Assembly (NCBI GenBank): GCA_018896835.1
Contig: JAHILS010000078.1
Coordinates: 1-37,328, forward strand
Reading direction: 5' to 3'
Origin: Patescibacteria group bacterium
GTDB lineage: Bacteria; Patescibacteriota; Patescibacteriia; UBA9934
Length of the DNA: 37,328 nucleotides
Shown piece by piece: positions 15,928 through 30,109 of this stretch. How positions within the stretch are numbered: position 1 is the stretch's first letter; every line of letters starts with the position of its first letter. The notes under the pieces are model-generated. The model searched no databases. It was not told where the DNA came from and saw nothing but the letters and a program-made list of their open reading frames with translations. The position numbers and the translations under genes are program-made.

Positions 15928-15987
15928 GGGGTCAGGGCTCTAACTTTGAATTTTTTATGAATTATTCAAAGTTAGAGCCCTGACCCC
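15928..15987 (-). terminator. Very long perfect hairpin (24-bp stem), terminator-like on the minus strand
   Basis: GGGGTCAGGGCTCTAACTTTGAAT (15928-15951) pairs perfectly with ATTCAAAGTTAGAGCCCTGACCCC (15964-15987). On the minus strand the stem is followed by GGTTTTATTTG. Confidence 0.6.
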
Positions 15988-20435: not shown

Positions 20436-21230
20436 ATGGAGGATCACATGAAACTCGAATTCGGAATGATGTGTGGTGAGGGTGGACGTTGCCACAACGA
20501 AGACATTGGCGCAATTTTTACTCCAGCCATGCTCTTTGTTGCCATAGACGGCATGGGCGGACATGAGGGCGGAGAGATCGCCGCCGCTATGGTGTACGAA
20601 GGATTTCGAGCCTTAACGCACCAAGATCCGGGTCTTGCTCTGCTGTGCCAAACAGCCGAGGCAATCAATGCCAGAATGTATGCCATGAACACCGAATCTG
20701 CCAGCCAAGACGAGAATCAAGGCGGGCGATATCGTGGCATGGGCGCAGTCGTAACAGCAATTTGGTTTGACCTTGATAGTGAGGTCTACCATCTGCACCA
20801 CGTGGGCGACACCAGGGCATACGAGTATATCGATGGACGGCTCACGCTGGTGAGTGATGACCACTCATTGTCATGCGTCAAAGCCTTGTCTGAACGGGAA
20901 CGTCAAAAGCACAGGCTAAAAAATATCGTCACATCGAGCTATGGTGCGCGAGAAGGCTTCGAGCACATGCTCGCAACCACATACAGAATAGTAGAAGGAA
21001 TGACTATTCTGCTCTGTTCTGATGGTCTCACCGATTACGTTGACCCAGACGTGATGGAAGCGATCATAGCCAACGACATGGGCGCGCAGAAAAAAGCCGA
21101 GGCGCTCTACCAGTCGGCTATGGACGCTGACACCTGCGACAACGTCACAATCATCGTCGTCCACGTAATGCCTGAGGATCGTGACTGCAAAACAAGGTCA
21201 AACAGTGCCACACTCTGTCCGATCGAATAA
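20436..21230 (+). CDS. PP2C-family Ser/Thr protein phosphatase (high-GC cassette A)
   Basis: Motifs RCHNED, DGMGGHEGGE, GDTRAY, SDGLTD and DNVT appear in canonical PP2C order. GGAGG precedes the internal ATG at 20448, which may be the true start. Confidence 0.85.
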   Translation: MEDHMKLEFGMMCGEGGRCHNEDIGAIFTPAMLFVAIDGMGGHEGGEIAAAMVYEGFRALTHQDPGLALLCQTAEAINARMYAMNTESASQDENQGGRYRGMGAVVTAIWFDLDSEVYHLHHVGDTRAYEYIDGRLTLVSDDHSLSCVKALSERERQKHRLKNIVTSSYGAREGFEHMLATTYRIVEGMTILLCSDGLTDYVDPDVMEAIIANDMGAQKKAEALYQSAMDADTCDNVTIIVVHVMPEDRDCKTRSNSATLCPIE

Positions 21231-21272: not shown

Positions 21273-21534
21273 TTACTGCATAAAATTACGATACTAGGAT
21301 CACTACTTAAACATCCCACTACCCCTCTAGGAGAGCTTTTTGCATTTATCGAGGGCAAGCCATAATTTTTTATGACGTTGACACAGGCTAATTTTTCTTA
21401 TGAGGTTGCTTTCGCACAACCCGCTCCTTGGAAGGAGAACCAGATGATGCGAAAGCAAAAGACGTTTATTATGGTGAGTAGCATGGGTGAAATGAACCCT
21501 ACCGGTGCCTGACCCCAGAAACCCCAGAAACATA

Positions 21535-21574
21535 ATTTGCCACATAGTGCGCGATCGGACACTTTATGGCTAAA
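21535..21574. repeat. Degenerate copy of the CGATCG-core palindrome (family 2)
   Basis: ATTTGCCACATAGTGCGCGATCGGACACTTTATGGCTAAA matches the 30070-30109 palindrome at 32 of 40 positions by my hand alignment. Confidence 0.6.
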
Positions 21575-21612
21575 ATAAACAAACAGCCACTAGGCCGAGG
21601 TCGAAAAAATTA

Positions 21613-21681
21613 GGGTCAAGGCTCTATTTTTCAAAAATTGATCAAAAAATTGATCAAAAAGTAATAACTCGAGCCTCGACC
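21613..21681. repeat. Degenerate relative of the 15928-15987 hairpin, with an AT-rich tandem repeat in its loop
   Basis: 5' arm GGGTCAAGGCTCTA resembles GGGTCAGGGCTCTA, and 3' arm GAGCCTCGACC resembles GAGCCCTGACC. The loop carries CAAAAATTGAT/CAAAAAATTGAT in tandem (21632-21654). On the minus strand it is followed by TAATTTTTTCGA. Confidence 0.5.
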
Positions 21682-21689
21682 TTAAACAC

Positions 21690-21715
21690 AAAACAACCTC
21701 GTGGGAGGTTGTTTT
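21690..21715 (-). terminator. Rho-independent terminator of efp
   Basis: AAAACAACCTC-gtgg-GAGGTTGTTTT is a perfect 11-bp stem, 8 nt beyond the efp stop. T-rich sequence follows on the minus strand. Confidence 0.75.
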
Positions 21716-21723
21716 GATAATGA

Positions 21724-22290
21724 TTATTTATTTACGCGCTCAAGGTACACTCCTTCTTCTGTATTAACCTTGATTGTGTCGCCCTGGTTAATGAAAATTG
21801 GCACGCGAACCTTAAGACCATTTTCCATTATTGCATCCTTTTGAACATTTCCCGAAACTGTATCACCTTTTGATGCTGGCTCGGTTTGCGCAACAACGTA
21901 TTCAATTTTTATTGGAATATCTACTGCAATTGGATTACTTTCGTGCATCACGACCGTTGCGTCTATTCCCTCTTTCAAATACTTTGCGCAATCTCCAACT
22001 ATTGCTTCGTCAATGGATACTTGTTCAAAAGTCATTCCATCCATAAAATTATACTGACTACCTTCCTGGAAGATATACTGCATCTTCTTGTTCATTACGT
22101 CTGCAAACTTGAGGGTTTCACCAGATTTGTACGTGTTTTCAATTACTTTTCCAGTTGAAAGTGACTTCATTCTCACTCGGACAAATCCTCCGCCACGACC
22201 TGATGAAGAACGTGTGTAACTAAGCACAACCCAAAGATCGTCTTTTTCGCTTATTACAGTTCCACGCTTAATATCGGTTGGACCTGGCAT
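21724..22290 (-). CDS. efp: Translation elongation factor P
   Basis: 188 aa, colinear with EF-P across three OB-like domains. The C-terminal block is VPIFINQGDTIKVNTEEGVYLERV. Confidence 0.95.
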   Translation of the reverse strand: MPGPTDIKRGTVISEKDDLWVVLSYTRSSSGRGGGFVRVRMKSLSTGKVIENTYKSGETLKFADVMNKKMQYIFQEGSQYNFMDGMTFEQVSIDEAIVGDCAKYLKEGIDATVVMHESNPIAVDIPIKIEYVVAQTEPASKGDTVSGNVQKDAIMENGLKVRVPIFINQGDTIKVNTEEGVYLERVNK

Positions 22291-22301
22291 AATACTTGAG
22301 T

Positions 22302-22538
22302 TTATTTGTGAACAAATGGAAGAAGGGCCATGATGCGAGCGCGCTTGATCTCTTGAGAGACTTTGCGTTGATGCTCAGAACAAACTCCACTTCTTTTACA
22401 TGGAACTATTTTTCCAAATGAGGAAATATAACGTCGCAATAAATCTGTATTTTTGTAATCAATCACAGCATCCTTATTAACACAGAAAAAACAGTAACGT
22501 GAATTTTCCTTTTGTTTCATTGTTGTTATTTTTGACAT
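22302..22538 (-). CDS. rpsR: 30S ribosomal protein S18
   Basis: 78 aa with CFFC...IDYKNTDLLRRYIS...GKI.P.R.SG.C..HQR, typical of S18. Confidence 0.95.
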   Translation of the reverse strand: MSKITTMKQKENSRYCFFCVNKDAVIDYKNTDLLRRYISSFGKIVPCKRSGVCSEHQRKVSQEIKRARIMALLPFVHK

Positions 22539-22539
22539 A

Positions 22540-22974
22540 CTAGAATGGGATATCCTCTAATTTAATTTCATCATTGGCTGATGGTACGTTGATGATTGGG
22601 GCTGAGGCGTCAGGTCCTGATCCAAAACTTGTTGAATCGCCTTTTCCGCCCAGCATCACCATATTTTCCGCTACAATTTCTGTTCGATAACGCTTTACTC
22701 CATCTTGACCTTCCCAGTCGCGAGTTTGCAAACGTCCTTCTACAAAAATCTTATTTCCTTTTTTCAAGTATTGGTTGATTATTTCAGCCAATTTTCCCCA
22801 AGCAACTATATTATGGAATTCTGTTTGTTCTTGTTTCTCTCCACTGGCATCCTTCCAAGTTCTGTTTGTAGCCACTCCAAAAGAACAGACCGCCTGACCA
22901 CTTCCAGTCTGGCGAAGCTCTGGGTCTCGAGTTAGATTCCCAATAACCATTGCTTTGTTTAGTGATGCGCTCAT
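22540..22974 (-). CDS. ssb: Single-stranded DNA-binding protein
   Basis: 144 aa with an OB-fold N-terminus (LNKAMVIGNLTRDPELRQT...TEFHNIVAWGKLAE) and an acidic C-terminal tip LEDIPF. Confidence 0.95.
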   Translation of the reverse strand: MSASLNKAMVIGNLTRDPELRQTGSGQAVCSFGVATNRTWKDASGEKQEQTEFHNIVAWGKLAEIINQYLKKGNKIFVEGRLQTRDWEGQDGVKRYRTEIVAENMVMLGGKGDSTSFGSGPDASAPIINVPSANDEIKLEDIPF

Positions 22975-22975
22975 A

Positions 22976-23452
22976 TTAGATATTGGTTAAGTCTGAATCT
23001 AAAATGTCGTTGAGCTGTTTGTCCAAATCCTCGGCTCCTAGCTTTTCTGTGGCAATAACCGGTGATTGAGCCTTCTTAGCTCGTGGCTCTTTTTTAACAG
23101 CAGTACGCTTTCCTTCTGGAGATAACGGTTCTTGGTATGAAGTTGGCGTGAATGTCATGGAAGGAATTCCTTCTGGTCGCTTCAACACAGAATGTCGCAA
23201 GATGTCTTCACTAAGACGAAAATCTTGATCGATCTTCTGCAGGTTTGAACCGTCATGCTCAATATAAGTCAAAATATACGTTCCGTGACGTACCTTTTTG
23301 ATTGGGTAAGCAAGCTTAAGTTTTCCAAGGTTTTTTGTTTCCTGGACCTGGGCACCAGCGGTTTGGAGCGATTTTGCAACACGCTCAGTCACTCCATCGA
23401 TCTCAGAATCTGAGAATTTTGAAGGAATGATATATAAAATCTCGTAGATCAT
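22976..23452 (-). CDS. rpsF: 30S ribosomal protein S6, with a C-terminal extension
   Basis: 158 aa with N-terminus MIYEILYIIPS...KLAYPIKK..HGTYIL. It is the first gene of the rpsF-ssb-rpsR arrangement. Confidence 0.92.
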   Translation of the reverse strand: MIYEILYIIPSKFSDSEIDGVTERVAKSLQTAGAQVQETKNLGKLKLAYPIKKVRHGTYILTYIEHDGSNLQKIDQDFRLSEDILRHSVLKRPEGIPSMTFTPTSYQEPLSPEGKRTAVKKEPRAKKAQSPVIATEKLGAEDLDKQLNDILDSDLTNI

Positions 23453-23510
23453 ATTGATAGGCCTCTTTCTAGGAGGCAGCCTCTCGGCTACGGACTATTT
23501 ATGAGTTAAT
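23453..23510 (-). promoter_or_regulatory. Possible rpsF leader hairpin sequestering the SD
   Basis: The minus-strand leader ...GGCUGCCUCCUAGAAAGAGGCCUAUCAAU-AUG can pair CCUC with GAGG, which is the SD. Confidence 0.25.
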
Positions 23511-23600
23511 GCCCAGATAGTAGCCGATTGGCTGGTTTTGGTCAAGATTTCATACTCTTTTTGGTCAAAATCATATTGACTATGATATTGTTTCATCACT

Positions 23601-24764
23601 ATGCAAACCTTTGCCATTTTAGGATCACACTCGCGTCTAAGCCTTGCTGAGCTTAAGGCTGTTACTAAAACTGATATAAATAAGAGTTCTGATCAGTCGG
23701 CTGTATTTGAATATAATAAAGACTTACTTCACTTGCAAAATAAGCTCGGTGGCACGCAAAAGCTTGGCGAAGTGTTGGGAAGTGTTAAAGATGCCCAAGA
23801 AATTGAGGCTCATTTGCTAGCCATACTTAAAGATCAAGTTGGTGACAATAAGCTACGCTTTGGAATTAGTGTATACGATCTTGGTGACACTAAACGCACA
23901 AAAGAACTTCAAAAATTCATGCTTAAAGTGGGAATAAATTTAAAGAAAACAATTAAGCAGTCTGGAAGGTCGGCTCGATTGGTTACTGCCAAAGAACCAA
24001 CACTTTCAACTGTTGTTGTCGCAAAAAATAAACTCATAAGCGACGGGGTTGAATTTGTCATTATGGTTGGTGGCTCTGAAATTCTAATTGGCGTTACAAA
24101 AGCTATCCAAGACTTTGAAGACTGGTCACATCGTGATTATGACAGACCGGCACGCGATGCTAGGTCAGGAATGTTACCACCAAAACTTGCCAGAATGATG
24201 GTGAACTTAGCTGGAGTTGATCCAAAAAACTCTTACTTGCTTGATCCTTTTTGCGGATCAGGAACAATTTTAATGGAAGCATCACTTTTGGGATTTGATA
24301 ACGTGATTGGATCTGATATTTCAAAAAACGCCATTGATGATACTCGTGAAAACTTACAGTGGCTTATTGATCAAAATTATCCAGTAGCTGACCACACGCT
24401 CATCTGCTCATCGGCTGACTTTATGAGCGACAAGCTAGATAATAATCTAGTTGACGTCATCGTAACCGAACCATTTTTAGGAAATCCTCGTTCTGGCAGA
24501 GAGCAAGAAATCGAAATCACCCGTGGCATCAAATCACTATCTGATTTATACGAATCATCTTTTTTGGAACTTGATAAAATTTTGCGACCTGGAGGAAAAA
24601 TGGTAATTGCCTCGCCGATACACTTTATAGATGATAAAGAATTTCCAGTTCCAACCATAGAAATCATGGAATCGCTCGGCTATTCTTTAGAACACGAACC
24701 AATGCTTTACAAACGCGAAACTCAATTTGTCGGCAGAAACATTCTCATTTTTGCAAAAAAATAG
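23601..24764 (+). CDS. SAM-dependent methyltransferase, UPF0020/Trm11-RlmL-like (probably RNA)
   Basis: 387 aa with SAM motif I LDPFCGSGTILMEA, DIS in motif II and a VTEPFLG motif IV-like block, preceded by an N-terminal THUMP-like region. Confidence 0.7.
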   Translation: MQTFAILGSHSRLSLAELKAVTKTDINKSSDQSAVFEYNKDLLHLQNKLGGTQKLGEVLGSVKDAQEIEAHLLAILKDQVGDNKLRFGISVYDLGDTKRTKELQKFMLKVGINLKKTIKQSGRSARLVTAKEPTLSTVVVAKNKLISDGVEFVIMVGGSEILIGVTKAIQDFEDWSHRDYDRPARDARSGMLPPKLARMMVNLAGVDPKNSYLLDPFCGSGTILMEASLLGFDNVIGSDISKNAIDDTRENLQWLIDQNYPVADHTLICSSADFMSDKLDNNLVDVIVTEPFLGNPRSGREQEIEITRGIKSLSDLYESSFLELDKILRPGGKMVIASPIHFIDDKEFPVPTIEIMESLGYSLEHEPMLYKRETQFVGRNILIFAKK

Positions 24765-24785
24765 GCTAATTTTAGCATCAAGGGG

Positions 24786-24814
24786 TTGACACAACCTCTT
24801 TTTTGTGTTAACTT
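24786..24814 (+). promoter_or_regulatory. Putative promoter of cassette B
   Basis: TTGACA (24786-24791), a 17-nt spacer, then TAACTT (24809-24814). GGGAG lies 6 nt before the ATG at 24874. Confidence 0.5.
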
Positions 24815-24873
24815 TTCATGTCCTTTTTGTACTTTCTTCAGTGTCTCAATCCAACCAAACAGAGGGAGTCAGC

Positions 24874-25995
24874 ATGAGGAACATCCTCAACGTCATCCGT
24901 CAAATCTCGATCAATGTCTGGCACGGGATGTGCCGGTGGACCCCTGTGGTGGCTTCGGCCATCTGGGCGTTCACTGCAAAGTGGACGCCGGTCGTCTGGT
25001 CATACGCGATCATCGTGATCGTCTGGATCGGACGAGCCCTCTGGAGCACCACGAAATTCGTGGGCCGGCTCATCCGGACCACTGCAATCAATCCCATGCG
25101 CCAGAACACCAAAGTCTGGCTCTTCGGGAACATCTGGGGCGCAATCTTCTGCGCTCTGATGGTGACGGGATTCACCATCTTCTACGGACCGGTGGAAAGC
25201 CCAGTGCCAGAAGGCCCTGACATCGGTGGTGTTGACATCGATCCACCAGTGAAGCCTGGCGAGCCTGCCGTATGTGGCGACGCATGCGTCAAGGAAATTC
25301 GCAATTCGCGCTCAAAGCTCCGTGGCATCGAGAAAGAAGAATTGCGATATGTCCTGGAGGAATACAATAGCTACGTAGCGTCCGAGACCTGGCGCCAACG
25401 CGCACAGTCATGCCACCAGAACTACTGGGAGCACTTCCAGAAGGCAGAGGAGATCACGCTCTACCCGAGCGAACTCCTCGCTGGCAAGGCTTTGATCGAG
25501 GGCGCTGGATGCAAATTCATTACCGCAACAAACGGCGACGGCGGGATCGGGCCAATGCAGATCACACACCCGGTATCTGGCCACATCAACGCCACCGCAC
25601 GACTGCTTGGCACCACAAGCGACGGCGTGCAGTACAGGAGCGACTATCTGCACAACGTGCTCCTGGGCGCTGTCATGTTCTCGGACTTCGAGGACATGTT
25701 CGGAAGTCGTGGCGTTGGGATTCTCGCCTACAACCGCGGACCTGGAAATGTCCGCAGGGACATGCGACGCGCGGGACTCAACAGCTATATGCGTCGTGTG
25801 ATCTCCGACTTCCGTGGCGGAATCCCGGAGCATGCTGGAAAAGGTGGCCGCCCTCGCGTATATGCGGACAAGGTTCTGGCCGGAATGGTCATGATGTACC
25901 GTGTCTCGCATGGGCTTCCGCTCGAACCACTCACCAAGCTAACACTCGACGACATTCCTGGTGCGGATCCATCGCAAGATGGAAAGGATCGCTAG
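24874..25995 (+). CDS. Membrane-anchored lytic transglycosylase (SLT-domain) protein (high-GC cassette B)
   Basis: N-terminal hydrophobic segments are followed by SLT motifs in order: ALIEGAGC (catalytic Glu context), GGIGPMQIT and ILAYNRGPGN. The ORF track starts at 24805, but the promoter and SD favour 24874. Confidence 0.7.
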   Translation: MRNILNVIRQISINVWHGMCRWTPVVASAIWAFTAKWTPVVWSYAIIVIVWIGRALWSTTKFVGRLIRTTAINPMRQNTKVWLFGNIWGAIFCALMVTGFTIFYGPVESPVPEGPDIGGVDIDPPVKPGEPAVCGDACVKEIRNSRSKLRGIEKEELRYVLEEYNSYVASETWRQRAQSCHQNYWEHFQKAEEITLYPSELLAGKALIEGAGCKFITATNGDGGIGPMQITHPVSGHINATARLLGTTSDGVQYRSDYLHNVLLGAVMFSDFEDMFGSRGVGILAYNRGPGNVRRDMRRAGLNSYMRRVISDFRGGIPEHAGKGGRPRVYADKVLAGMVMMYRVSHGLPLEPLTKLTLDDIPGADPSQDGKDR

Positions 25996-26007
25996 GAAAC
26001 TACTCAA

Positions 26008-26036
26008 CCCCCGACCGCACTGCGGATCGGGGGTTT
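26008..26036 (+). terminator. GC-rich rho-independent terminator of cassette B
   Basis: CCCCCGACCGC-act-GCGGaTCGGGGG is followed by TTT, 13 nt after the stop. Confidence 0.65.
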
Positions 26037-26134
26037 GCGCTATTAATCGTATAGAATTTTAGGATTTAAAATAATATGAAAGCATAATTCTAGTATAATC
26101 TTAGTTGCCGCGCAGAATATTAATTACTGATTAG

Positions 26135-26170
26135 TGGCTCACTTTGGGCCGATCGGACCAAAGTGAGCCA
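26135..26170. repeat. 36-nt CGATCG-core palindrome, family 1, copy 1
   Basis: TGGCTCACTTTGG-G-CCGATCGG-A-CCAAAGTGAGCCA has 13-bp arms and one G/A mismatch. It is identical to 26732-26767 and ends 18 nt before the ATG at 26189. Confidence 0.9.
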
Positions 26171-26188
26171 TAGTTAAAATAAACATCT

Positions 26189-26710
26189 ATGAAATCAAAA
26201 TTTCTTAAATCAAACTCACAAACAACTCGTCTTCTAATTCGTATAGGAGATGGGTTGGAGAATATTTGTTTCACACTTGAGAACTCTCGTCTAGTTATGT
26301 CAGTAGGTATAGATGATGCAAGGACTATATTATGGCGTCGCGAACAGACAAGGATAAGAAGAACGATGCGCCAACTGAAGGAAAAAAAACTAATTAAGGT
26401 CAAAAAAGTAGGAAATAAGTACAATGTACTGCTGACAGATGAAGGCATGATCGAATACCTCCATCACAAACTTATTGATTGTAATGAGTTTGAAGACGAC
26501 CAAGTCACCATGGTGATATTTGATATACCAGAGACTCAAAGACAGGTACGAAAACAATTACGTAGGTTTCTTGAAGAAGCATGTTTTATGCCGATTCAAA
26601 AAAGTGTTTGGATTTCAAAATTTGATTCAGGAGAAATATTGTCAAATTTTTTTCAATTAAAAGGTAGACAGAAATGGATCCGGGTATTTAAAGCTAAAAG
26701 ATTATCTTAA
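26189..26710 (+). CDS. Winged-helix plus Cas2/PaaX-C-like ferredoxin-fold protein (PaaX-like regulator family suspected)
   Basis: 173 aa. The N-terminal half contains a recognition helix and wing (IRRTMRQLKEKKLIKVKKVGNKYNVLLTDEG). The C-terminal half, VTMVIFDIPETQRQVRKQLRRFLEEACFMPIQKSVWIS...WIRVFKA, follows the b1-a1-b2 pattern of Cas2 and the PaaX middle domain. It is AT-rich like the backbone. Confidence 0.55.
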   Translation: MKSKFLKSNSQTTRLLIRIGDGLENICFTLENSRLVMSVGIDDARTILWRREQTRIRRTMRQLKEKKLIKVKKVGNKYNVLLTDEGMIEYLHHKLIDCNEFEDDQVTMVIFDIPETQRQVRKQLRRFLEEACFMPIQKSVWISKFDSGEILSNFFQLKGRQKWIRVFKAKRLS

Positions 26711-26731
26711 CAATCAGATTATCAACAAGAT

Positions 26732-26767
26732 TGGCTCACTTTGGGCCGATCGGACCAAAGTGAGCCA
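26732..26767. repeat. 36-nt CGATCG-core palindrome, family 1, copy 2
   Basis: Identical 36-mer lying between the stop of the 26189-26710 ORF and the stop of convergent ychF. Confidence 0.9.
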
Positions 26768-26816
26768 ATTGAATAAAATAACCCCACAAATTAAAACAAA
26801 AATCTTATACAAAGAA

Positions 26817-27893
26817 TCAAACCCCCACTCTAAAGTGACAAACGTCGCCGTCTTGCATGACATATTCTTTTCCTTCAACTCGTAGCTTGCCAGCTTCTTT
26901 GGCACCGACCTCGCCGTTATATTTTACAAAATCCTCATACTTAATTATTTCAGCCCGAATAAATGCTTTTTCAAAATCAGTATGGATTACACCGGCTGAC
27001 TGAGGAGCTTTTGAACCTTTTTGCACAGTCCATGCTCGTGTTTCTTTTTCACCAGTTGTTAAAAATGTGACCAAGTCCAGCATCTCGTAACTTTTTCTAA
27101 TTACCTGGTCTAGTCCCGATTCCCGCAAACCCAGTTCTTGCAAAAATTGTTTAGCATCCTCATCTGGCAATGACACAAGTTCGGCTTCAAGCTTTACAGA
27201 AATCGGAATTGCCATGCGCTCTATTCCAAAAGGTGACTGCCAATTACCAGCCTTGGCTGTTTGCTCGTCAACGTTGACAACGTAAAGAATTTTCTTGGTT
27301 GTGAGTAGTTGAATTTCCTTGAGCGCTTCTTGTTCTTTTTCTGTCAGCTCAACCGAGCTGGCCATTTTGCCTTGCTCGAGAGCTGTTTTGAACTTTTTTA
27401 AACCATCAACTTGTAAAAGTAAAAATTGATCTTTAGTACTTTTTGCTTTTGTTTCGATGGAATCGAGCCTACGATCTACGCTTGAGAGATCTGTCATTGC
27501 CAATTCCATTTCAATAATTTCTGCATCGCGTATTGGGTCGATGCTACCGTCAACGTGAATAATCTCTGGATCATGAAAGGCGCGAACAACGTGAACAATC
27601 ATATCTGTCTCACGGATGTTTGCTAAAAATTTATTACCCAACCCCTCTCCTTTATGTGCACCTTTTACAAGACCGGCAATATCCACAAACTCAATAGCTG
27701 TTGGGATGACCTTCTGTGAAGATGACATTTTTGCCAGCACAGAAAGTCGATCGTCTGGAACCTCGACAATCCCAACGTTTGGTTCAATCGTACAGAACGG
27801 AAAATTCGCGCAATCAACCTGCTTTTTAGTAAGCGCAGTGAAAAGCGTTGATTTACCAACATTTGGAAGTCCGACAATCCCTACTTTTAGCAT
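26817..27893 (-). CDS. ychF: Redox-regulated ATPase YchF
   Basis: 358 aa with the G1 motif GIVGLPNVGKSTLF and a C-terminal TGS-like block (VRAWTVQKGSKAPQSAGVIHTDFEKAFIRAE). Confidence 0.95.
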   Translation of the reverse strand: MLKVGIVGLPNVGKSTLFTALTKKQVDCANFPFCTIEPNVGIVEVPDDRLSVLAKMSSSQKVIPTAIEFVDIAGLVKGAHKGEGLGNKFLANIRETDMIVHVVRAFHDPEIIHVDGSIDPIRDAEIIEMELAMTDLSSVDRRLDSIETKAKSTKDQFLLLQVDGLKKFKTALEQGKMASSVELTEKEQEALKEIQLLTTKKILYVVNVDEQTAKAGNWQSPFGIERMAIPISVKLEAELVSLPDEDAKQFLQELGLRESGLDQVIRKSYEMLDLVTFLTTGEKETRAWTVQKGSKAPQSAGVIHTDFEKAFIRAEIIKYEDFVKYNGEVGAKEAGKLRVEGKEYVMQDGDVCHFRVGV

Positions 27894-27998
27894 ACGTCAC
27901 AAAGTCTACCTGATTTTGTGATTTTTTCAATCTCATCACCAAAAACCTCCGCTCTTAGAGGTTTAGTATTATAAAATTTTATCTTGGCAAATAAACGT

Positions 27999-28031
27999 AT
28001 AATTGACCTGTCAATTATATTTTGATAAAAA
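27999..28031 (+). promoter_or_regulatory. Putative promoter of cassette C overlapped by a 20-bp palindrome (possible operator)
   Basis: TTGACC (28003-28008), a 17-nt spacer, then TAAAAA (28026-28031). The palindrome ATAATTGAC-ct-GTCAATTAT spans 27999-28018. GAGG lies 6 nt before the ATG at 28071. Confidence 0.35.
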
Positions 28032-28070
28032 AGAAGCGGTTTCGATCACCCCCAAACCCATGAGGACACC

Positions 28071-28598
28071 ATGGATCACCTGATCATCGAAGAACTCCAG
28101 GCTTTCTTCTTCCGCGCCATGCTCCAGGGCTGGATCACGGGAAAGAAGGCCAAGCCGATCGAAGGCCTGCCTGGCTACAAGGGCTTCCGACACCAAGAGG
28201 ATGCGGGAGGGTACAAGCTCCTGCTCGTCGACGCCTGGTGTAGTGGCATGGACGACTACTCCTCCGGCTTCACCACGATCTACACCTCTCCCAAGGACAC
28301 CGACGACGGCAAGCCGATCTGGACTCCGGTCTGGACCATGAACTACATGGGTCACTACGATGAGGGGGAAATCATCGTCGTGATGGATGCGCTACGCCAG
28401 GCCTATCGTACCAGGCAATTCATCGGTGGCCGAGGACTAAACTCGGTCAGGTGTGGTAACTTGCGCTACTCCAACAGAACTGGTCATACGGCCTGCTTCG
28501 AATCCTTCGACGGCATCGAGCATGTCGAAAGTAGTAAACGCACTCCCGGCTTCCATGAATACTCCGGTGGGGTGCTCTTCGACCACAAGAAGAAGTAA
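28071..28598 (+). CDS. Hypothetical protein, DUF5680-like by pattern (high-GC cassette C)
   Basis: 175 aa. The spacing of conserved aromatic and Gly residues (W.MNY.G..., GGRG..., Y.N...G....F.G.E, Y.GG) resembles DUF5680 as I recall it. This was not verified. Confidence 0.45.
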   Translation: MDHLIIEELQAFFFRAMLQGWITGKKAKPIEGLPGYKGFRHQEDAGGYKLLLVDAWCSGMDDYSSGFTTIYTSPKDTDDGKPIWTPVWTMNYMGHYDEGEIIVVMDALRQAYRTRQFIGGRGLNSVRCGNLRYSNRTGHTACFESFDGIEHVESSKRTPGFHEYSGGVLFDHKKK

Positions 28599-28640
28599 GC
28601 GTCACCCAATTTCGTCATCCGTCCTTCGGGACGAGTCCGT

Positions 28641-28666
28641 GCCCTGCGCCACCACTGGCGCGGGGC
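28641..28666 (+). terminator. GC-rich terminator of cassette C
   Basis: GCCCTGCGCC-accact-GGCGCGGGGC is followed by TTATTGCTTTC. Confidence 0.6.
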
Positions 28667-28794
28667 TTATTGCTTTCAAATTATTTTTCATACTTTGGAC
28701 GATCGTCAACTTTATGAAAAATTTATTTTAGAAAAATGCCTATTATCCACATTATTGATGTTCGTATACAAAATACAGGATGATGAACGGTCGA

Positions 28795-28823
28795 TTGACA
28801 GATAGCATATTTACAGCTAATAT
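28795..28823 (+). promoter_or_regulatory. Near-consensus sigma70 promoter of cassette D
   Basis: TTGACA (28795-28800), a 17-nt spacer, then TAATAT (28818-28823). GGAG lies upstream of the ATG at 28892. Confidence 0.55.
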
Positions 28824-28891
28824 TTGCTATCAGCTCTTTCTCACTTCCATCAACGGTACACCGTCAGCGTACCAAACCTCCGGAGAACGCC

Positions 28892-30004
28892 ATGTCCTTC
28901 CTCATCGTCCTCTTCATCCTCATCGGTTCCATATTCGCGCAGGACCTGACGGTCATGCAGGCCCACAAGACCTACGGGCTCTTGGTGGCTACCGAGAGCT
29001 TCGCGGAGTCAGAGCTGTCGCGCCCGAATGCGACGGCCCTGTGCTCCAAGAACGTGCTGGCTCTCTACAAGTCCATGCCGTTCTCGCAGATCACCAACCT
29101 GTGCAAGCCAGAGGACGCCACCCGCGCCAGCATCCTGGCCTCGGCCAGGCAGATTCAGGAATGCGCCCAGGCGGGCGACACCGTCCTGTTCTTGTTCACT
29201 GGAATGGGCGTAGGTGGAGACTTTGGTGAGCCCATGTTGCTCACCTATGACTCTGCGTTCACTTCTGAAGCAATGGCAGGAACGTCCATCAGGATCGACG
29301 AGCTCACCTCTGTCCTGTCCAAGGACGGAGTGCAGATCATCATGCTGTTGGATGCGTCGCTCAACACCAAGTTCGACCTGGTGACTGACAGTGATCCGCA
29401 ATTGATGACCACCGCGGGCCCGATCGCATCGGACGTGCCGGGCAAATACCTGTCTCTCTCCTACGCACCCAGCGTTGGAGTATGGCCACAAGATCCCGAC
29501 CTGTTTGGCAACACGCTCGCGCACGCGCTCGGTGGCGCGGCCGATGCCAACAGTGACGACACGATCACGCCCGGCGAGATCAACCGCTTCATGGTCGAAC
29601 AGATCAACACCCAAACTGGGATGCCCCCGGGCGTGCGCGGTGAGTGGAGGTCGGCGACCGAACCGATCCTCACGCTCAAGCCAGAACAAGAGCTGGCGAT
29701 CGGGTTTCCCGAACCTCATTCGTGGCGACCGATGGTCTCGCCGACCGTAAAGCGCACGGCCATTATCAGCGGAGCGTCGATGCTCGCGATCGGCGGGGCG
29801 AGCTTCGCACTTTCCTGGCGGGCGCAGAAGTGCCTGGAGGAAGTCTGCTACCAAAACCGTGACGAGTACGACTCCGCGGTTTCCCAGCGCAATGCCTTCC
29901 TCTGGGTAACCAGAGGAGCAAGTACGCTCGGCGCAATCGGACTGGGCGGAGGTCTCGTCCTCCAACCCAACAGTGCCAGCTTGAGCCTCACGGCTCGCTG
30001 GTAA
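28892..30004 (+). CDS. Secreted, C-terminally membrane-anchored caspase-like (peptidase C14 fold) protein lacking the catalytic His/Cys dyad (high-GC cassette D)
   Basis: 370 aa with a signal peptide MSFLIVLFILIGSIFAQD. The caspase-domain layout is YGLLVA...DAT...GDTVLFLFTGMG...LLTYD...IIMLLDAS. The usual SGHG is TGMG and D(A/S)C is DAS. Two hydrophobic helices lie near the C-terminus. Confidence 0.5.
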   Translation: MSFLIVLFILIGSIFAQDLTVMQAHKTYGLLVATESFAESELSRPNATALCSKNVLALYKSMPFSQITNLCKPEDATRASILASARQIQECAQAGDTVLFLFTGMGVGGDFGEPMLLTYDSAFTSEAMAGTSIRIDELTSVLSKDGVQIIMLLDASLNTKFDLVTDSDPQLMTTAGPIASDVPGKYLSLSYAPSVGVWPQDPDLFGNTLAHALGGAADANSDDTITPGEINRFMVEQINTQTGMPPGVRGEWRSATEPILTLKPEQELAIGFPEPHSWRPMVSPTVKRTAIISGASMLAIGGASFALSWRAQKCLEEVCYQNRDEYDSAVSQRNAFLWVTRGASTLGAIGLGGGLVLQPNSASLSLTARW

Positions 30005-30022
30005 AATCGCACAAATAACTAC

Positions 30023-30047
30023 GCCCGACCTCCCCTGGAGGTCGGGC
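30023..30047 (+). terminator. GC-rich terminator of cassette D
   Basis: GCCCGACCTC-ccctg-GAGGTCGGGC is followed by GCTCATGTTTTC. Confidence 0.6.
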
Positions 30048-30069
30048 GCTCATGTTTTCTGCTAAAACT

Positions 30070-30109
30070 ATTTGCCATATAGTGTTCGATCGAGCACTAT
30101 ATGGCAAAT
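30070..30109. repeat. 40-nt CGATCG-core palindrome, family 2
   Basis: ATTTGCCATATAGTG-T-TCGATCGA-G-CACTATATGGCAAAT has perfect 15-bp arms. It lies between the cassette D terminator and the stop of the convergent TPR membrane gene. Confidence 0.9.

Follow-up and report, generated by a model that had tools for sequence, protein, structure and literature searches.

What do the long palindromes centered on CGATCG mark in a genome from the Patescibacteria group? The DNA that raises this question, hereinafter the window, is a stretch of 37,328 nucleotides (contig JAHILS010000078.1 of assembly GCA_018896835.1), in which an initial annotation had described four such palindromes as a family lying downstream of accessory gene cassettes and serving perhaps as folded recombination sites or as protein-binding sites. 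We find that they keep company with one gene in particular, whose product joins a winged helix-turn-helix (wHTH) domain to a Cas2-fold domain: this gene and one palindrome on each side of it constitute a self-contained module conserved across the Patescibacteria. On balance, we favor, with moderate confidence, the interpretation that the palindromes are the cognate sites bound by this protein, such that gene and sites make up one module. Judging by comparisons with related genomes, the window's three further copies belong to this family too but stand alone, present as ~50-bp intergenic indels of this lineage.

The window contains five palindromes of 36–40 bp, centered at 21554, 26152, 26749, 28702 and 30089, each on CGATCG (Table 1). 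The architecture that had been described for four of them, namely arm, mismatch and self-complementary core, is present at all four positions and is far beyond chance: palindromes with at least 16 of 20 arm positions paired number five in the window (four of them on CGATCG), whereas 200 dinucleotide shuffles average 0.015, and at a threshold of at least 14 of 20 there are ten (five on CGATCG) vs 1.46 in the shuffles (none on CGATCG). The two copies around the wHTH/Cas2-fold gene are, as had been reported, identical to each other over exactly 36 bp: 26732–26767 repeats 26135–26170 as TGGCTCACTTTGG-G-CCGATCGG-A-CCAAAGTGAGCCA, i.e., 13-nt arms and a G/A mismatch around the core CCGATCGG, with the downstream copy reaching 20-nt arms over the span given in Table 1. 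The copy at 30070–30109 is built of 15-nt arms, a T.G mismatch and the core TCGATCGA; it does agree with the 21535–21574 copy at 32 of 40 positions, and the latter looks, by its sequence, like a decayed relative of it. The fifth member had been listed as a bare 10-bp palindrome, GACGATCGTC at 28704–28713; it is present but not bare, being the center of a degenerate 40-bp palindrome (28683–28722) that lies ~70 bp upstream of the -35 box of a caspase-like gene. When folded as single strands, three copies yield -15 to -19 kcal/mol (z = -7.7 to -8.9) and the two degenerate ones are unremarkable. Apart from an unrelated hairpin at 15928–15987, the 37 kb hold no other long inverted repeats. CGATCG itself occurs 18 times vs 6.5 expected from the mononucleotide composition, a roughly 3-fold excess.

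Table 1. Positions of the palindromes and of the genes discussed in the text, numbered from the first nucleotide of the window.
Feature	Position	Strand	Remarks
Degenerate solo palindrome	21535..21574	.	14/20 arm positions paired; convergent PP2C-efp spacer
Palindrome upstream of wHTH/Cas2-fold gene	26135..26170	.	Start codon 18 bp away
wHTH/Cas2-fold gene	26189..26710	+	173 aa; N-terminal winged helix, C-terminal Cas2-fold domain (PaaX_M)
Palindrome downstream of wHTH/Cas2-fold gene	26730..26769	.	19/20 paired; convergent spacer with ychF
Degenerate solo palindrome	28683..28722	.	16/20 paired; 3' of DUF5680 gene and terminator
Solo palindrome	30070..30109	.	19/20 paired; between terminator of caspase-like gene and stop codon of convergent TPR gene
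G+C-rich genes	PP2C 20436-21230; SLT 24805-25995; DUF5680 28071-28598; caspase-like 28892-30004		G+C content at third codon positions (GC3) 0.57-0.78 vs 0.28-0.39 in neighbors

The link between gene and palindromes emerges from a scan of one genome per species, which gave 80 loci (numbered with the prefix L) from Uhr-, Sacchari-, Moran-, Curtiss-, Roizman- and Doudnabacteria, Paceibacterota and others, each with flanks of up to 10 kb. Counting as a palindrome any site with at least 14 of 18 positions paired, a threshold that inflates the pairing statistics, and taking terminal zones of ~200 bp at the gene, we found a palindrome in the upstream zone of 37 of 75 loci, in the downstream zone of 54 of 78 and in both zones of 27. 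The density is 2.95 per kb in these gene-end zones vs 0.081 per kb elsewhere (~36-fold), and palindromes centered specifically on CGATCG number 64 in 32 kb of the zones vs 14 in the remaining 1,144 kb. Homologs of 68–32% identity from other Patescibacteria all have CGATCG palindromes immediately before and after the gene. The fit to the gene can be intimate: in many Uhrbacteria-type loci its stop codon falls inside the left arm of the downstream copy (CATAAG) and its start codon inside the right arm of the upstream copy (CTTATG), while in one subfamily a TGnTATAAT-like box stands at a fixed distance past the upstream palindrome, the right arm of which covers the -35 region. The gene itself occupies varied contexts among the loci and its G+C is 0.05 below that of its surroundings.

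The centers of the sites are nearly invariant, CGA|TCG with rarer CGG|TCG, CGT|ACG, CGG|CCG and CAA|TTG, and positions 4–18 of the arms admit all four Watson–Crick pairs; a test of inner against outer arm positions for conservation gave no clear rule. The arms differ among loci and among paralogs of one genome, as in the multi-paralog genomes UBA12070 (L020, L023), DOPF01 (L044, L055, L058) and CAZGYI (L045, L080), and the two copies around any one gene are near-identical. This variation follows the protein: the distance between arms correlates with that between wHTH domains once the Cas2-fold domain is controlled for (partial r = 0.20, p < 0.0005), and the reverse partial correlation with Cas2-fold-domain distance is weaker (r = 0.095). 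Mismatches within the arms comprise 29 G.T or T.G, 27 A.C or C.A and 93 of transversion type; the lack of a G.T excess on either strand favors symmetric recognition of double-stranded DNA over that of an RNA or a one-strand hairpin, and a reading of the palindromes as RNA hairpins was dropped because the mismatches show no excess of G.U wobble.

The protein encoded between the palindromes matches the Pfam domain PF20803 (PaaX_M; E = 6.8e-14, residues 104–170), exceeds the cutoff of the NCBIfam cas2 model TIGR01573 (26.5 bits vs 24.5) and is recovered as Cas2 by PADLOC. Its AlphaFold2 model (mean predicted local distance difference test score 74) retrieves type II-A Cas2 at the top of a Foldseek search and also aligns with PaaX of Escherichia coli (8a39) over 124 columns, across both domains. 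Conserved motifs read FDIPE...RKxLRxFL...FxxIQKSVW, the conservation of FDIPE and IQKSVW being partly circular as both were used to seed the 80 loci. Pfam detects no PaaX_C domain, the phenylacetyl-CoA effector domain of PaaX, at the C-terminus; the protein stops with residue 173. Matches from Pfam, NCBIfam and PADLOC are to PaaX_M and Cas2 only, with no HUH/Y1 or other known transposase domain. The family is large, comprising 4,884 representative clusters at a cutoff of E <= 0.001, or 1,726 if E <= 1e-10 is required, and its members are unnamed or recorded as 'hypothetical' or 'Cas2' in public records; viral contigs held no relative of the gene.

These observations bear on the interpretation through a precedent, PaaX of E. 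coli, which binds TGATTC(N27)GAATCA, a 39-bp site of two-fold symmetry, and represses its own promoter (PMC9493321). The span of that site matches the 36–40 bp of the palindromes. With the ~36-fold association that holds down to 32–34% protein identity, the paralog-specific arms shared by the two copies of a gene, the closer tracking of arms by the wHTH than by the Cas2-fold domain, the double-strand signature of the mismatches, the promoter position of the upstream copy in one subfamily, and the lack of CGATCG palindromes in orthologous spacers of three relatives without the gene at the locus (L110–L112), it argues for the palindromes being cognate sites of the protein. Briefly, we advance the following plausible mechanism. 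A two-fold-symmetric dimer, probably held together by the C-terminal Cas2-fold domains, would be seated on the 36–40 bp site. In this division of labor, the conserved Cas2-fold core would lie over the invariant CGATCG center and the variable wHTH domains might read the variable arms. The upstream site would overlap or adjoin the promoter or start codon of the gene itself and mediate autorepression in the manner of E. coli PaaX at Px. The downstream and solo sites, many of them in promoterless convergent spacers, might act as protein roadblocks or insulators or might be merely parked copies. Beyond cognate sites as such, this reading of the protein as an autoregulated repressor competes with one in which the palindromes are copied repeats (see below); in its favor are the precedent of PaaX, a symmetry of the double-stranded form and the upstream copies close to promoters.

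Comparison of the window with its relatives throws light on the solo copies and on the supposed cassettes. The 21535 palindrome is a ~49-bp indel relative to the orthologous spacer of L006, has a counterpart in L015 and is absent from L110 and L111. The 30070 palindrome is a ~50-bp insertion relative to L110, L111 and L113 (the caspase-like protein of the last being 77% identical), all of which keep the GC-rich terminator only. For the 28683 palindrome no counterpart was seen in L111 or in the 208 bp upstream of the caspase-like gene of L113. On these alignments, solo copies appear to be gained and lost quickly, in lineages that possess the gene. Elsewhere, ~20 solo copies were seen in the 1.14 Mb of flanks, and most share their arms with a nearby gene-flanking copy (L021, L029, L045, L087, L093). 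Palindromes also form doublets of different arms, 42–86 bp apart (L021 at 1018/1060 and 18729/18815, L043 at 10301/10349, L050 at 9864/9910), and L021 also has, 9.5 kb upstream, a near-identical twin of its gene's downstream palindrome, the pair bracketing ten genes. A metagenome scan with the 30070-type pattern (TTGCCAT-N8-CGATCG-N8-ATGGCAA) returned ten solo matches, none beside a family gene, and revealed no cognate paralog for the solo type of the window.

As for the cassettes, the earlier placement of the palindromes downstream of them is accurate for the window in that a palindrome comes after each of the four G+C-rich genes, which is unlikely by chance (~0.007 by our own estimate for the 10-kb neighborhood). 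It does not generalize: the palindromes of the 80 loci track the wHTH/Cas2-fold gene, the mean profile around that gene has no G+C anomaly, and G+C-rich neighbors occur only in some Uhrbacteria-type loci (L012, L020, L026, L061), being non-homologous to those of the window where tested (L012). A general link of the gene to such neighbors was accordingly rejected, and the expected enrichment of palindromes beside genes of atypical G+C is not seen over the 80 loci. Further, two of the four genes had been miscast. Those for PP2C and the caspase-like protein are syntenic core genes in every relative examined and keep their G+C excess there (GC3 0.42–0.50 vs 0.21–0.30 in L110 and L111), and so are not recent insertions. 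In the module-free relatives these two genes carry ordinary terminators only, the PP2C–efp and caspase–TPR spacers of L110–L112 having GC-rich terminators and no CGATCG palindrome, which speaks against the proposed tie between palindromes and cassettes. The units that do vary at the locus are SLT, DUF5680 and the wHTH/Cas2-fold module. The SLT gene stands before the module in the window and after it in L006, past the palindrome and with none at its own 3' end, and is missing from the locus in L015, L110 and L111; in L110 and L111, DUF5680 does not occur in the interval from ychF to the caspase-like gene; and the module is missing in L110–L112, where 33–49 bp separate the methyltransferase gene from ychF. 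That spacer, the exact position of the module in the window, L006 and L015, holds a different 36-bp palindrome without CGATCG, TAAGTCTTATAAGTCTTA|TAGGACTTATAAGACTTA (L110 8635–8667, L111 6392–6440, L112 near 3463). At L012, non-homologous genes of GC3 0.8–0.98 lie within the same ychF–TPR interval. Among near-identical contigs, 27 of 30 substitutions relative to L005 fall within 200 bp in the 5' part of the SLT gene (24969–25167), and 9 of 15 relative to L004 within a 130-bp segment at the DUF5680 gene's 3' end (28466–28595); the changes are not adenine-specific, and the clusters look like recombination tracts or hypervariable patches.

Several observations weigh against the palindromes being simply operators of the protein. 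A downstream copy is commoner than an upstream one, and the gene next to it is convergent in 28 of 51 cases and co-directional in 23, an indifference odd for an operator; of the five copies in the window, three occupy convergent spacers that have no promoter. The solo copies of the window match the gene-flanking ones at only ~10 of 20 arm positions, by an eye count, and perfect 40-bp sites that arise as indels resemble copied elements rather than evolved operators. The protein retains Cas2-like acidic residues (FDIPE) and lacks the PaaX effector domain, such that a nuclease role is possible. Finally, when the upstream and downstream copies of one gene are compared, 26 of 86 differing pair positions are fully compensated and 60 uncompensated; all four in L024 are compensated, as are those of L091, and each copy is still a perfect palindrome. 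Each palindrome therefore maintains its own symmetry. Half-site recognition would not by itself lead one to expect this: some constraint from a hairpin or cruciform, or a template-switch 'perfecting' of quasi-palindromes, is needed, and the symmetry could be kept by such a constraint, by snap-back copying or by template-switch correction, a known process that acts on quasi-palindromes. RAYTs, the transposases associated with repetitive extragenic palindromes (REPs), have a characteristic anatomy of a short gene flanked by palindromes, repeat types tied to paralogs, several divergent paralogs and dispersed copies (PMC3337134). The palindromes could likewise be non-autonomous elements, with the wHTH/Cas2-fold protein a domesticated nuclease or recombinase that recognizes and copies them via a hairpin or cruciform cut at or near CGATCG, a possibility that we regard as tentative and on the whole unlikely. 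It would account for a ~500-bp gene sitting between palindromes, with its own repeat for each of several divergent paralogs in a genome; for the solo copies and doublets, and the presence or absence of the former as indels among close relatives; for compensated changes as expected from a snap-back intermediate; for the lower G+C of the gene (-0.05) and its changing contexts; for the retention of the Cas2 beta1 acidic motif FDIPE in a protein passing the NCBIfam cas2 cutoff; and for the better conservation of the downstream copy, with copies placed in promoterless convergent spacers. Every point of the published account of RAYTs has its match here except for the protein, which is no HUH transposase. 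Against this reading, no HUH/Y1 or other known transposase domain is found, the copy number looks low at ~20 solo copies in 1.14 Mb of flanks, no target-site duplication is recognizable, the mismatches lack the strand bias that single-strand hairpin recognition would predict, and no copies turned up on viral contigs. Moreover, to our knowledge, Cas2 alone has no known strand-transfer activity.

That the palindromes might be plain bidirectional terminators or mRNA-end hairpins that share a CGATCG loop, with no dedicated protein, is improbable. They form strong hairpins, many lie in convergent spacers, and the PP2C–efp copy of L015, with an A-run before and a T-run after it, does resemble a bidirectional terminator; REP-like elements have also been co-opted for attenuation (PMC3337134). 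This L015 copy is the exception, as there is no conserved T-tract past the arms in 57 downstream copies, and a terminator scan picked up none of the five window palindromes as a GC-rich stem with a T-run. Two window copies trail a canonical terminator with its T-run (28641–28666 ahead of the 28683 copy, 30022–30048 ahead of the 30070 copy) and have no T-run of their own; the earlier statement that every palindrome follows such a terminator is right for these and fails for the other three, ahead of which the scan found none. G.U pairs are not tolerated, upstream copies occur at promoters or start codons, and a ~36-fold concentration at one gene family, paralog-specific arms and an invariant 6-bp center would all be unexpected of terminators. 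The earlier judgment that termination alone does not suffice is thus borne out, and the sites look like protein-binding and/or REP-like elements. Integron-like cassettes, each an open reading frame with a 3' palindrome and inserted through a site-specific crossover at the palindrome's center, would suit the five co-oriented window genes that end in a palindrome (PP2C, SLT, wHTH/Cas2-fold, DUF5680 and caspase-like), the presence or absence of SLT, DUF5680 and the module among relatives, and the start and stop codons that lie inside inner arms at some loci. Yet the PP2C and caspase-like genes lack palindromes in relatives, as does the 3' end of SLT in L006; the arms are near-perfect, with neither the extrahelical bases nor the R/L box organization of attC; and the window encodes no recombinase save housekeeping RecA and RuvC. 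There is also no hybrid-site signature, since complementarity between inner arms (398) and between outer arms (398) is not above that within palindromes (414 and 427). The attC-like role that had been proposed was rejected on this negative hybrid-arm test and the missing recombinase, and we consider it very improbable indeed.

The window itself is a chromosomal segment of an Uhrbacteria-like member of the Patescibacteria with ~42% G+C and the housekeeping genes uvrA, uvrB, ruvC, yebC, rpoC, rpoB, recA, ftsK, efp, rpsR, ssb, rpsF and ychF. The same arrangement recurs on contigs of 99.2–99.9% identity from independent assemblies and is thus not an assembly artefact. All open reading frames of at least 140 aa were scanned or identified through synteny; they include no integrase, transposase, RAYT or tyrosine recombinase of the kind that the initial annotation had led one to look for. 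When the window was searched in six frames, neither a second copy nor a pseudogene of the wHTH/Cas2-fold family was found; no tRNAs are present in it, and Rfam, with gathering and E-value thresholds, gave only two spurious miRNA-hairpin matches on the palindromes and no CRISPR-DR match. The wHTH/Cas2-fold gene has the SLT transglycosylase gene and ychF as neighbors, with no paa genes in the vicinity. The methyltransferase encoded next to it belongs to the UPF0020/RlmKL type, and its linkage to the gene is confined to this clade. At two distant loci (L016 and L017, with homologs 32–34% identical), the module lies beside type IV secretion-like genes (TraC-like, PrgI, VirB4-like ATPase), together with proteins of 2,251–2,314 aa and bAvd-like genes typical of diversity-generating retroelements. 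Some smaller repeats also occur in the window. The sequence GGGTCARGGCTCTA, found at 15929 and 21610, represents a second small repeat family: the former copy is within an inverted repeat that separates rpoB from recA and is perfect over arms of 24 nt (15928–15987), and the latter within an AT-rich imperfect one (21600–21690) that adjoins the 21535 palindrome, directly 5' of which is a tandem duplication of CCCCAGAAA (21512–21530). Likewise, TAAAATAA(A)C stands 1–6 nt past three of the five window palindromes (21575–21584, 26175–26184, 26776–26784) and also at the orthologous, palindrome-free site of L006 (near 6330); this might reflect a preferred target, or else a -10-like box.

In functional terms, a large family is now paired with a conserved DNA element and given a function open to testing, in bacteria where hardly any regulators or mobile elements have been characterized; our full-text search of the literature found no description of such a gene–palindrome module. 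If the protein is a repressor and the palindromes its operators, they offer a ready set of mutually distinct protein–site pairs and one of the few ways into patescibacterial gene regulation. Should the protein instead copy the palindromes, the system would represent a new class of mobile element, domesticated and based on the Cas2 fold. We think it doubtful that the system is an undescribed patescibacterial counterpart of REP/RAYT, in which a wHTH-fused Cas2-fold nuclease recognizes, cuts or copies its own CGATCG palindromes; were it so, there would be free-standing Cas2-fold proteins tied sequence-specifically to ~36-bp palindromic repeats outside CRISPR, with a bearing on the origin of Cas2 and of CRISPR repeats. 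In annotating genomes, one should take these palindromes as signs of the wHTH/Cas2-fold module rather than of cassettes acquired by horizontal transfer.

Against this backdrop, the module may be set beside four known systems. HIP1 of cyanobacteria (GCGATCGC) is an abundant 8-mer spread through genes; it shares the CGATCG core, whereas here 40-bp palindromes are tied to one gene family in Patescibacteria and CGATCG is only ~3-fold over expectation. A HIP1 or restriction–modification reading was set aside in view of this mild excess and of a methyltransferase that is of the UPF0020/RlmKL type and unlinked beyond the clade. CRISPR repeats with Cas2 likewise combine a Cas2-fold gene with direct copies of a ~36-bp repeat, and the best sequence and fold matches of the protein are type II-A Cas2; in contrast, there are here just two repeats, each palindromic over its full length and ~560–650 bp from the other, with the gene taking the place of a 'spacer', and the window and annotated neighbor loci have no cas1 and no array, nor does Rfam match a CRISPR-DR. 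This resemblance may go no further than a shared fold. REP/REPIN sequences and their RAYTs are comparable in having a short single-copy gene with extragenic palindromes on either side, one repeat type for each of several divergent paralogs per genome, and dispersed solo copies and doublets that come and go among relatives; they differ in using an HUH/Y1 transposase in place of a wHTH and Cas2 fold, and the present palindromes are even, near-perfect, 36–40 bp long and fixed at the center, seem low in copy number (within flanks of up to 10 kb) and have Patescibacteria as hosts. PaaX of E. coli and Pseudomonas, finally, is a chain of ~305 aa (8a39) with an effector domain that the window protein of 173 aa lacks, no paa genes are near the module, and the PaaX site consists of 6-bp repeats with a 27-bp spacer, whereas here the entire 36–40 bp are palindromic around an invariant CGATCG, a second copy follows the gene, and solo copies occupy spacers that have no promoter. 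At the same time, PaaX shares with the window protein an N-terminal wHTH and a Cas2-like central domain (PF20803, with the structural match to 8a39); the palindromes resemble its ~39-bp site in length and two-fold symmetry, and action of the regulator on its own gene, as in PaaX, is what we predict for the module.

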